DNA of 64,000 bases from Camelus dromedarius (Eukaryota), in NCBI RefSeq assembly GCF_036321535.1, contig NC_087436.1, forward strand, positions 61,010,001 to 61,074,000, written 5' to 3'. Each line of letters starts with the position of its first letter. The stretch's first letter is position 1. This document shows, one piece after another, positions 34,011-39,637 of the stretch. Below the pieces are notes generated by a model. The model was not told the DNA's origin. It did no database searches and saw nothing but the letters and a program-made list of their open reading frames with translations. Made by a program: the position numbers and the translations under genes.

Positions 34011-37000
34011 TAACACCCTCCACTCCCCAACAAAAAATGTATAAACAGAATCAGAACATATAAAATAATGGCTGGAAGCCTACACTGAGCTGAAGAAGGA
34101 CAAGGACATCATTATGGCAGGTGGTGGGGAGAGAGTCAAGGGGCTTCCCAGGGAAGGTGGCACAGCTGATCCTTGAAGGCTAAGGTTCAAAGCGGGGAAA
34201 GGAAAGTGAGGGTGTGATTGCAAACAACAGCAAAGAGCGAACAATTATTGTGGACCATAAAGGGGGTTGGAGAGAAGAGGCCAAAATAAGAGTTATTGTG
34301 AAGAGCCTCGTATGCCCTGCTAAGTAGTTTTAACTTGGTCCTAAAAGTATTAACAAGGGAGACCCTTAAGAATGAATTCTGATTCCACAAGTCAACATTA
34401 ATTCTGAGGGAGAAGAAGAGGGGATGGGACCCAAAGGGACCAAGAGATTGCCACGGAGCTCAGATATAAAAGACCAAGAACATAGGGGTACCAAGAAGCG
34501 GAATAAAGGAGCACCATGTTCTCTTCGGCCTGTGAGATGTTATTATACATCTTGGCATTTCTATTTACTTTTTATTAAACTGAATTTTCAAATCCCCTCT
34601 TCCAGTTACCCATGACTTCAGGGACCTCAATAAGACCTAATGGCACTAAATTCATGGTGACAGTTTCAAGATTTGAGATTATTAACTCATTATCTTTTAT
34701 GCAGATTTTCAAAAAGATGGCTTTGCTTCTTATCACAGAGGAAGGTACAAAAAACAAGTGGACCAGCATCTCTCCCCAGAAGGTGGGTAAGTGGTGACTT
34801 CAGAAAAGAAGGGACTGGGAAAAGACGGGGAGTGTCTCCATGGCTCCAGGGAAAGTGCTTTGAGAGGTAGGTTTGTAACCTGTATGGATTCTTTCTTAAT
34901 CAGCAAGACCAGACCTGTTTTGTGCATCCCCAGCTGCACAGCACCTAGCACAGTGCGGACACATGCGAGATGCTCAATAAATGTAGGCTAAATGAGACCA
35001 ACAGTGATGCTCACTCCCTCTCAATATTTGAGGAAGCATAATTCAAGTTTCTTCTGAGGGTAGAAAAGGCTGGAAGAACCCAGAGAATGTATTTCCTACT
35101 CTTTGCAAAGCCCCAGTAGTAAATGGCACAGAAGTACGTGGCACTCTGATGGGTTTGCTTCTATAATTGTCAAAACACATCCAGGAATCAGGAGAAATCT
35201 ATTAGGAAATCTGGGTGTAGTCCCATTTATCTCTGCTGAGGAAAAGTACTCTGGTGAACCTCACATCCTTTTCTGCTCTCTCTGGCATTCTCCCTATAGG
35301 GCCCCAGGCCCTGGACCCTGTATCTCTAAATTTAGGTTGGGGAAAAAAGGCTAATTTGTGTCAAGGTTTTCAGTTTTAGATGCTATTTCTCTTAACATTT
35401 TCCCAAACATAAAGAAAAACCAGGTCTGTACCCTCATGGGGTTTGCAGTCTGGAGAGATGCAGAGATGGGTTTACACGATAATGGAGTTATGTGACTCCT
35501 TCTATATGACTATCCAGCTCAACATTTGATAATTGCACTGTGTGATTGTTTAGAGATGTAAATAGCAGAAGAGAAGATGGATAAAACTACCTACAGGCTA
35601 GAACTGACAATACTTAAATCATCATCGAGGTAACCTTCTGCTTTGACAAGGCAAGTTCCATGGATTTGGAAAGACTATGGGGAAAAATTCCCCTTGGAAT
35701 GTGCAAGAAAAATGTCAGTATTTGGAATGAATTCTTAAACTATGGACATTTCTCTTTTCATGGCATGACTGATAAATTAGACCCAAAGGCACAAATGATT
35801 GGTTCTGTTGGAAAAGTATGCAGATTATTTGGATTGTGATTTTCTAAATTTAAGGTGATGATAATGTGAATAGTAAGTTGTTAACACTATTTAAGGCTTT
35901 CAATAGTGAACTCTGAAATCAGTGACAGATGACCTATTAGTGTCTGGGCTTCTGGGAAAAACTCTAAAAAAAAAAAAAAAGAATTATTTGGAAAGCTTAG
36001 AGAAAGTCTGAGCTGTGTTAAAGAAGCAACTGCTTCTGTCATTTCAGGAGAACTACCTCCTCTCTTTTCTACCTTGGCTCAGACCAGGAGAGGGACTGCC
36101 AAGGTTGGATTTCTAACTTTCCCTTGAAACTACTGCCTATGGAAAATGTTATTTCAGACATTAGAATTAAAAGCCCCCCCCCCCCTTTTTTTTTTGCAAG
36201 TCCAGACTCTATTTTCCCGTTTCATTTATGACAAGCTTGGTTGGACTTGTTTGGAATAAAATAAAAGATCAAACATAACCTCAAAGGCATTCCTGCTGAA
36301 CAATGCATCCTGGGGACAAATTACGCAAAAAAGGAACAAGAAAGAAAAACAAAATGGTCATAAGGTTCACAACATAAACAACATCATTAAAAAGCATTCT
36401 TCAAAGAGTTTGGGGGGTTTTGCCCACATATAATTAGATAGTTAGATTACTGTTTGAGACTCTAACTTCCAGTGAGTGAATTATTTTCCTTAATATTAAG
36501 AAAGAAGAAACCATGAAATCCAATTTGTAAAATTCTTACAATCTAGCCAATTAAATGTGGGACAATTAACTTCTCTCTGAGAGTCCTTATTTTGTATCTC
36601 ATCGTCAAACTCCTTTCTCCTCTTGACTTCATCTCTATACACCCAAGCCAAGAAAGAACGAAAAGAAAATGACAACTCTGGGTTGCCAAAAGAGTGGGGG
36701 CAGCTTTTGAAGATCGATTTGCCAGCGGTTAGCACGAGCTGGATGAGCTTTGGGGATGCGAGTGTCTGTGGAATCGGGAATCTTTTCCATATATACACTT
36801 GGCATGCAGTCCTCACTTTCTTGGCGCACGCACCGAACTCTCAAAATAAAACCACCAAAAAAAGAGAAGGGGAGACTACGCCCATCCCTCCAGGCATCCC
36901 TCGGCCGCCAACTCCTCCCCGCCCCTCCTGCCCAGGGGAGGAGCCGCGGGAACCAGCTGGGCCGCGGGCCGCGGGCCGCAGACGCCCTATCAGGTCTGCC

Positions 37001-37068
37001 CCGCGAGGGGGCGCCCTGCTCTCCGGGCTGAGCGGGGCGGGGTCGGAGGGGAACGCGCTCATGCCCAC

Positions 37069-37543
37069 CTTGCTCGCAGGTGCCCTTGCTGACCTGGGTG
37101 ACGGCCTTCTCTCCGCGGCTCTCGGCCCTCAGGCTGGCGGCGCGCAGCTGGCAGCCGCTGGGGTAGGTGATGCCGTCACTGCCGCACACCGGGTAGCGGC
37201 TCTTGCACACGCACACGCCGCTCACCACCGGGCCACCGGCTGCTGCCCCGGCTTTACCCTTCCGCCTCTTGCGGCTCTTCACGCACTCCATGCCCGGCGC
37301 GCAGTGCCCCCTGCCGGCTCCGCCGCCCCCGCACGGCTCGCCCTCGCCGCGGGCGCACACCGGGCAGCAGCCACACGCGTCGCGGGTCTCGCCCAGCGGG
37401 CAGCCTCGCGGGGGCAGGGGCGGGCAGGCGGCCGGCTCGCAGGGGCCACAGGCGTCCGAAGAGGAGGAAGAGGAGAGGGGCAGGAGCAGGAGCAGCAGCC
37501 CGGCGGCGCCAAGGAGCAGGGCGGGCAGCGGCGGCCGCTCCAT
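37069..37543 (-). CDS. IGFBP7: Insulin-like growth factor-binding protein 7, coding exon 1 (codons 1-158 plus 1 nt): signal peptide, IGFBP N-terminal domain, basic linker, Kazal-like domain
   Basis: ATG at 37543 in good Kozak context (GCC ATG G). Translation MERPPLPALLLGAAGLLLLLLPLSSSSSSD...GCGCC-like 'ACGCCPVC'...KSRKRRKGK...CVCKSRYPVCGSDGITYPSGCQL...KGTCEQ matches IGFBP7. The exon ends at a phase-1 donor CAAG|GTGGGC after 475 coding nt. Exon 2 (GPSIVTPPKD...) is not among the ORFs in the window. Confidence 0.97.
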
Positions 37544-37580
37544 GGCTAACCGTGGTGGCGGTGGCGGGAGCGCGCGCGCG

Positions 37581-37655
37581 AGTGAGCCGGCGCCCTCCGG
37601 CCGGCCCTTTAAACCCGGTGCCCCGCCCGGCCGGACCGCGGGAACCACACCCCGT
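37581..37655 (-). promoter_or_regulatory. IGFBP7 core promoter: TATA-like TTTAAA (37613-37608), Inr-like CTCACT (predicted TSS ~37583), Sp1/KLF boxes
   Basis: On the minus strand GGGTTTAAAGGG lies about 30 nt upstream of TCA(+1)CT. GC box CCCCGCCC at 37621-37628 and CACACCC at about 37647-37653. The implied 5' UTR is about 40 nt. Confidence 0.7.
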
Positions 37656-39637
37656 GGCGACGAGAGCGTGGCCGCCTCGCCCGCGCCGCCTCTCCCGGGA
37701 CCGCGGCGCTCGAGCGCGCCCCTGCTGGCGGGGCCGGGCCGGGCAGCCGCGGGGCAGCCACGGGGGTGGGGGCCTCTGGGTCTCAGGGCTCCGAACGCAC
37801 CTCGCCGGCTCCTGCTCGGCCCCTGCTCCCGAGGGCTGCAACCCCAGTCCTTGGGGGATCGCCCGCAGTGAGAACGGCTCCCTCACCCTCTGGTCCCTCG
37901 CCTTTCCCAGTCGGAATATTTATACTTCTTAACAACTTTGAGATGACCCCACGTTTAATCCATTAAATTCTCCGCGGGTCTGGGAGACCTGAAAACTGAT
38001 TACTTTGTGGTTTGGGAAGCTCTTTTAAGAACAGTTCGTTTTTCAAACCCCCCATGGGGATTTTGTGTCCCCGCTGGCCACCGGCCCGGTGTGGTCATGG
38101 GTGCCAAGCTAAAAGGACAAATGGTTCGTAACCAGTCCTCTTTTTGGAACCTCATAACTGCCTCCTCCCTCTGTGCTTTCTTATGCCAAGTCAAGTTTTA
38201 AGTGTAAGTGTGAGTACCAGAATCCATGCGAGAGCTGGTCATCGTCCTCAATTTATAATAAACGGTGCTGGACCTCCATCAAACCTCTCCGGAGAACTAA
38301 GCCCACCTGGGGGTGCCATGGAGACCCCCTAAAGTTCCTCAATTTTCATTGGTAATCCCGTGAGGTTTTTAATATAAGCAACTGACAATTCCTCCTCAGT
38401 CTTTCTGTAAAGTACTCTGCAAACTCAATTTCAGAGCCTTTTCCCAAGAATATTGGCCCTTTGAGTCCCTTCTATCCAGACTTTTAAGTTATTTTCATTT
38501 TTATTGAACATACAACACTGAAGTGTGCATAATTCTGCATGTTGCATTTTAGTTCTTTGAGTTCTTTTTTCTTAGCATAGATCCAAGGATTTATAGGATT
38601 GCTAACTCAAAGTGTGGTTCTCAATGCCACCAGCAGTTTAGAAATGTCACTCTCACCAGAGTCTTCCTAGGATAATTATTATAAACTTTTTTGAAAATTA
38701 AATAATCACAAAATTCAGAGAATAAAAAACCAAGCTGATTTTTGGCCTCTCCTTATCATAGCACTTTTCTCTCCTAGAAAAGTGGCACTTTTTTTTAAAA
38801 AGGTCATATGTTAACATGAAAATTGTTTATAAAACAATGAAAAGTCCTTAGAGCAGAGTTTTCCTAAATATTCTTGCCTTTGTCCCTCAGTGAGAGTTTA
38901 CATGACCTGGTGTACAGTCCCAAATTGAGACAAATGCAGAGTGCACTCTGATTTTACCTATTCTATTTCAGTGTATTAATTCACTAGTCAAGGTCTACTA
39001 AGTTTATATCATGACCAGCTTTGACTATCTGTTATAGTTTTAGGCTCTCAAGAACCCGAGACAAGGACTATTCCAGTGCCGGTAGTTTACTAGAGAGGTC
39101 ATGTCTACACCACTTCTGGGGCAGAGGCGTAGGGAGTGAGCAGGAAGGGAAGACAGCCAATAAAGATGCTTATCAAGTCAGCTCTCGGCAGGGTGGGCTC
39201 TGTAGCCAGACGAAGCCCTCAAGGCTCTACAGAGCTTTGTGTGGGGGAGGGTGGGGGGATGGGGGCAGCCACTGACAGCAGTTGCATCACTGGTGGTATA
39301 TCCTATAGAGTTTTTCAAACCCTGTGTTGGAGCCAGCAGTAAGAATGCAAGCACATGGTACAGTAGAGTCCCTTTGCATGGGCTCCTCACTGCCCAGCAA
39401 GTAGAAGAGCAAGCAGGGTCTTATCACTGAAGGGGGTACCTGGGCTGTGTGTGATGGCACCAATCTGGAGAACTTGAAAATAGGAAGAGATGTGGTTATT
39501 CAGAAGAAGGAGAAAAGGCAGGAAAATGGAGCCTTTACATAGAAAACTGAAAACTCCCTCCTTCCAAGAAAGAAAATATTGTCACCCATTCAGCTTTAGT
39601 TCTGGTGAGACGAAGATCTGAGATGTGGAGACAGGAT

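Follow-up and report, generated by a model that had tools for sequence, protein, structure and literature searches.

Predicted exonic recoding hairpin in dromedary IGFBP7 exon 1, with signal-peptide codons opposite the K95 editing site

IGFBP7 and related editing substrates

The I/V exonic hairpin of KCNA1 is an ADAR substrate in which both strands come from the coding exon. The rod of IGFBP7 (276 nt) is longer than those of KCNA1 and Gabra3, and its predicted editing-complementary sequence (ECS) differs in coding for a signal peptide. Editing of IGFBP7 was reportedly first described by Levanon in 2005, and that report is said to have already described pairing with the upstream coding sequence. 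At the Gabra3 I/M site, too, both halves of the duplex bound by ADAR are coding-exon sequence (PMC5291252, PMC5654063), although Gabra3 has an intronic inducer stem, whereas PMC5654063 lists IGFBP7 without a conserved adjacent stem. Like those of IGFBP7, the GRIA2 R/G and CYFIP2 K/E sites lie in imperfect duplexes and undergo site-selective A-to-I recoding, but in both cases the ECS is intronic and editing rises as splicing slows, which the editing of IGFBP7 mRNA does not (PMC5291252).

Licht et al. 2016 (PMC5291252) took Igfbp7 as their example of a substrate whose ECS shares the exon of the edited sites. According to that paper the duplex is confined to exon 1 and, because it is exonic, editing does not track splicing, the editing of Igfbp7 mRNA being unaffected by splicing efficiency. 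In a minigene consisting of exon 1 and 150 nt of intron, mRNA editing was steady at about 33% and 74%, and editing was higher in the pre-mRNA. The sites are named Q/R and K/R in that paper, the Q/R site presumably being R78G.

In human, the recoding changes are tabulated as c.A284G and c.A232G (PMC4053846), and in pig IGFBP7 is edited strongly, with both sites pig-biased in brain (PMC8192503). ADAR2 deaminates K95 and K95R alters a matriptase site, with reduced cleavage as a result (PMC13107992, PMC13046735, PMC8582992); ADARB1 raises K95R (PMC13107992), and the matriptase site is treated in PMC8582992. Further papers deal with IGFBP7 (PMC10984384, PMC5959251, PMC7069340). No report of camel IGFBP7 editing was found in the literature searched, nor was any statement of signal-peptide pairing or synonymous constraint for IGFBP7, the original editing papers lying outside the scope of that search.

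The predicted exon 1 rod and its putative editing sites

Exon 1 of IGFBP7 lies on the minus strand of the 64,000-nt stretch of Camelus dromedarius DNA analysed here (the window; Table 1). It encodes, from the ATG at 37543, a signal peptide, the IGFBP domain, a basic linker and the Kazal domain, and is followed by a GT donor after 37069. Pfam assigns residues 32-87 of the exon-1 protein to IGFBP and residues 111-156 to Kazal_2, and the best named matches among 58 proteins are IGFBP7, so that both the domain set and the matches identify the orthologue. Residues 1-110 are identical to Camelus IGFBP7 (P0062) at 110 of 110 positions, to Bos at 109 and to Sus at 108. Residues 161 onward of Camelus IGFBP7 have no tblastn match within the window, which therefore holds only exon 1 of the gene and none of the later exons, where the C-terminal Ig domain of an IGFBP7 orthologue is expected.

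Several minor features surround the exon. A TATA-like TTTAAA is found at 37608-37613 (minus strand), ~65 nt upstream of the ATG and within a GC-rich island. Exon 1 is also overlapped by two antisense ORFs on the plus strand, 36743-37549 (268 aa) and 37290-37871 (193 aa), which are probably due to high GC content. For 20 of 24 sequencing runs listed, assembled contigs cover the stretch wholly or partly; these contigs are no evidence on editing either way. A metagenome scan for orthologous DNA gave at least one confirmed locus among the matches listed (597 candidates), at 35% identity, and was left unused.

Table 1. Positions in the window of the IGFBP7 exon 1 features, with predicted pairing
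Feature	Position	Strand	Details
IGFBP7 exon 1 coding part, c.1-475	37069..37543	-	sequence and ORF
5' arm, predicted exonic ECS	37454..37507	-	codons 13-30; pairs with 37232-37284
3' arm, edited strand	37232..37284	-	codons 88-104, basic linker KSRKRRKGKAGAAAG
Inner rod, IGFBP-domain codons 31-87	37285..37453	-	fold prediction; includes R78 stem
R78 stem	about 37420-37432 with 37306-37318	-	inside inner rod
K95 adenosine, c.284	37260	-	predicted A-C mismatch, 1x1 loop; editing gives K95R
Orphan C facing A37260	37477	-	first base of Leu23 codon CTC; unpaired P 0.99
K97 middle A, c.290	37254	-	predicted opposite CC, 1x2 loop
R78 adenosine, c.232	37312	-	A-U pair with U37426, inner stem; editing gives R78G

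The camel feature is very probably the conserved mammalian IGFBP7 exonic recoding hairpin, a real feature and one already known. It shares with the human, mouse and pig substrate the orthologous exon, the c.284 and c.232 adenosines 52 nt apart, the satellite adenosines and the exon-1 duplex; it differs in the species, and the base-pair register and the role of the signal peptide given here are our own prediction. The initial annotation, made from the window alone, had read the exon as an intra-exonic duplex, a reading that is correct but was published earlier (PMC5291252). By orthology, the result adds a further mammal to those known to carry this conserved and much-studied recoding site, and the same K95 and R78 editing would be expected to occur in this species.

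Folding of exon 1, which the initial annotation had proposed as a check, predicts a single long rod for 37230-37550 (-207 kcal/mol, z -4.32; 0 of 100 dinucleotide shuffles as stable). In the minimum-energy fold 224 of its 276 nt are paired and the outer stem reaches to about 37507/37232, so the predicted duplex lies within exon 1. The GC-rich 321 nt directly upstream, taken as a control, gave z +0.85, with 80 of 100 shuffles as stable. The plus strand of the exon segment also folds, nearly as well (z -3.77), and stability by itself therefore cannot single out the mRNA strand. Rfam returned 0 covariance-model matches at E<=1 in 37120-38200.

In the outer part of the rod, signal-peptide codons 14-29 are predicted to pair with linker codons 89-103, the residues of the 5' arm being Ala-Ala-Gly, a Leu run, Pro-Leu, a Ser run and Asp. 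The 43-nt arms that had been described as largely complementary (37458-37500 and 37238-37280) indeed form a duplex of -55.4 kcal/mol, and the minimum-energy fold joins 36 of the 43 bases in the 3' arm to the 5' arm, three of these pairs being G-U; the extended arms (37454-37507 and 37232-37284) reach -73.7 kcal/mol with 46 pairs.

The K95 codon AAG occupies 37261-37259 and the R78 codon is AGG, exactly as first annotated, and both adenosines are present in the genomic sequence at the human recoding positions c.A284G and c.A232G, in agreement with the claim that the residue numbering is that of human. In 4 of 4 folding contexts (330-781 nt) A37260 is unpaired (P 0.99-1.00) and faces C37477, which bears out the proposed A-C mismatch in prediction, and this loop is flanked by the pairs 37261-37476 (P 0.95) and 37259-37478 (P 0.99). 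A position opposite C is predicted for the adenosine of K95 (1x1 loop) and for that of K97, whereas A37312 is predicted to be paired (P 1.00) with U37426, which belongs to IGFBP-domain codon 40. Since A37312 lies outside the signal-peptide and linker arms, the signal-peptide arm accounts, in this fold, for K95 and not for R78.

In the mechanism proposed, exon 1 would fold to a long, imperfectly paired rod that brings codons 14-29 of the signal peptide against codons 89-103 of the linker, so that the K95 adenosine would face C, the K97 adenosine a CC loop, and the R78 adenosine would sit in an inner A-U stem. ADAR, in the form of ADAR2 for K95R, would then deaminate adenosines of the rod to give K95R and R78G, as shown in the human, mouse and pig papers, and K95R would change the matriptase site and lower cleavage, as those papers describe.

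Human editing sites offer a comparison for the predicted geometry. The supplement of PMC8897444 contains eight human IGFBP7 exon-1 editing sites; one known IGFBP7 site was filtered out there, and R78 is missing from its site rows. All eight positions (8/8) are A in the window. Listed human sites account for 7 of the 13 adenosines of the 3' arm (37238-37280) and for 1 of the 31 other adenosines in c.1-424 (Fisher p 3e-4), an enrichment that presumes a human A at the same positions, that is drawn from a list in which R78 is absent, and that is confounded by lower coverage toward the 5' end, by nearness to the strong site and by neighbour preference. In human, the highest editing within the arm falls on the two adenosines that are predicted to face C, c.284 at up to 96% and c.290 at up to 7.7%, and the paired arm adenosines reach 1-3% in the human list.

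It could be argued that the hairpin is real but that its editing is slight or absent in this lineage, the structure being kept for mRNA stability or for translation control near the start codon. K95R mRNA is reported to be more stable (PMC13107992), so the stem may affect RNA fate, and no paper on camel editing was found in the literature searched. Against this, K95 editing is conserved across mammalian groups (PMC8897444), editing is strong in pig, a fellow artiodactyl (PMC8192503), and the A-C geometry is intact in the camel prediction, which makes an unedited hairpin exceedingly unlikely.

Intronic partner, codon choice and composition

The duplex of GRIA2 type, between exon and intron, provides a different explanation, in which the K95 region pairs with an intron-1 stretch (about 36921-36982) in the pre-mRNA, leaving the exonic arm a minor role or none. 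Among 507 tiles over about 10 kb, one intronic tile ties with the exonic arm for a 41-nt site (-50.6 each), a fine scan of this site in isolation even favours the intron (-52.4 vs -50.6 kcal/mol), and in the published minigene, which included 150 nt of intron, pre-mRNA was the more highly edited form (PMC5291252). With a 53-nt site, however, the exonic arm gives -73.7 and the intronic stretch -58.3; the intronic duplex is loopy and leaves A37260 with one paired neighbour only, and in the two-strand ensemble the intron has P 0.000 and the 5' arm 0.82. Published mRNA editing was, moreover, constant across splicing efficiencies (PMC5291252). The intron is hence not the best partner, the tie holding only for the isolated 41-nt duplex, and an intronic ECS appears very improbable.

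The exonic pairing is thus retained. The initial annotation had held that the exon encodes both the protein and the editing substrate and that no intronic partner is required, which stands for K95 as a predicted substrate, where the exonic arm is preferred, in line with PMC5291252; for R78 the predicted stem is made of IGFBP-domain codons and not of the signal-peptide arm.

The GC-rich segment 36921-36982 (minus strand, intron 1) is a partial complement of the K95 arm and might contribute to editing confined to the pre-mRNA. A candidate intronic inducer stem at 36890-36980 gave z +0.90, with 163 of 200 shuffles as stable, and was rejected as an inducer element because the stem is not significant.

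Were the signal-peptide arm the ECS, a cDNA of wild-type IGFBP7 would be expected to undergo editing on its own, and K95R would be expected to disappear once the codons are optimised or the signal peptide is exchanged. Editability of the cDNA affects how experiments that overexpress wild-type and K95R forms are read. In PMC13107992, co-transfection of wild-type and K95R cDNA at 1:1 gave an excess of G that the authors put down to mRNA stability; the exonic stem could add to this excess by allowing the wild-type cDNA to be edited, and an ActD assay in the same paper is separate support for the stability reading.

Whether the pairing reflects selection was addressed by varying synonymous codons with the protein fixed. 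For codons 1-110, the real sequence (-211.6 kcal/mol) was matched by 1 of 150 codon permutations (-191.7 +/- 5.8) and by 0 of 150 GC3-matched synonymous draws (-188.8 +/- 8.1). For the arms alone, the real value of -69.6 kcal/mol was reached by 1 of 2000 permutations and 0 of 2000 GC3-matched draws; the arms for this duplex-only shuffle were picked post hoc from the fold, and the whole-segment test is therefore fairer. Of the 31 arm codons 7 end in A or U, compared with 5 of the 77 codons outside the arms (p 0.036; segment GC3 0.89), and all seven in the arms are paired. These codon-usage and shuffle tests draw on one genome and differ from a dS test.

The same results bear on the view that the arms are complementary simply because of the protein they encode and the base composition of the CpG island, with no selection on RNA structure. 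Leu and Ser codons are pyrimidine-rich and Lys, Arg and Gly codons purine-rich, so that low-complexity CU-rich and GA-rich arms pair readily; protein-preserving arm shuffles still give about -46 to -47 kcal/mol, and the antisense strand folds almost equally well. Yet the real codons outdo all but one of 2000 arm shuffles in one test and all 2000 in the other, and likewise all but one of 150 and all 150 shuffles of the whole segment; the rare A/U-ending codons are concentrated in the arms and paired, and the adjoining GC-rich control is unstructured. Composition as the sole cause is accordingly most improbable. We infer that pairing constrains codon choice, and probably also amino-acid sequence, in both arms; the synonymous constraint on signal-peptide codons that the initial annotation had suggested gains support from this single genome, through the shuffles and the A/U-ending codons, and from the conservation of the arms at the protein level.

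Protein conservation of the arms

One named placental protein per genus was compared for 49 genera, which are not independent of each other; records without the beginning of the exon were left out, as was a mouse record that carries both residues in the edited form. Modal identity was 0.971 for residues 14-29 and 0.977 for residues 89-103, compared with 0.820 for residues 2-13, 0.805 for residues 104-110 and 0.927 for the IGFBP domain, and both arms were unchanged in 37 of the 49 genera. In the literature searched, no earlier statement was found that the arms are more conserved than their flanks. When eight amino-acid changes in or beside the arms were modelled on the window codons, three kept the pair, one fell in a loop and four broke the pair.

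Individual lineages depart from this pattern. Shrew-type proteins (P0019, P0021) carry one additional Ala and one additional Leu in the signal-peptide arm and two additional Ala in the linker arm, at places corresponding to 37489-37510 and 37238-37246 in the window; these two-plus-two codons are possibly balanced insertions preserving the stem, a hint given by the protein sequences. In Jaculus (P0023) residues 78 and 95 are both Met, Perognathus (P0026) encodes the edited-type Gly78 and has a rewritten signal peptide, and Tenrec (P0024) has a shortened Ser run and a remodelled linker. All three are changed in both arms and are candidates for natural losses of the editing stem, or for annotation errors. 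The IGFBP domain, too, is most divergent in Jaculus (17 changes) and Tenrec (16 changes), and fast evolution of the whole protein could therefore explain their arm changes as well.

A wider reading, which we put forward tentatively and regard as possible though rather doubtful, is that in placental IGFBP7 the RNA stem, and not secretion, determines how long the signal peptide is and which amino acids it contains. The run of Leu (CUG) and that of Ala (GCA) in the linker would then be paired repeats that change length together, as in shrew, and lineages that lost an editable codon (Jaculus with M78/M95, Perognathus with G78) or remodelled the linker (Tenrec) would have released both arms, as natural editing knock-outs. 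No statement of such control by an RNA stem was found in the literature searched, the original IGFBP7 editing papers being beyond its reach. Should the co-constraint seen in proteins prove true of the DNA as well, IGFBP7 would offer a clear example of a signal peptide shaped by the demands of an RNA structure.

In bird IGFBP7 (P0028-P0039), inspected by eye, the position of R78 is Gly and the signal peptide is unrelated; R78G may therefore restore the outgroup state. Across 95 proteins scored at K95, 41 come from Logan/ENA only, and two of these have R95, both bat-like and one also with G78, the other 39 having K95; among the 54 named proteins R95 is present in one, mouse AAH92538, which has both G78 and R95. 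Accessions of the AAH92538 type are presumably cDNA clones. The R95 proteins fit editing in non-camelid mammals and are silent on editing in this species. In phyllostomid bats (P0074, P0093, P0098, P0010) S24P, at 37474 in the window, is predicted to turn a U-G pair into C-G, and would strengthen the stem if the bat codon equals the window codon.
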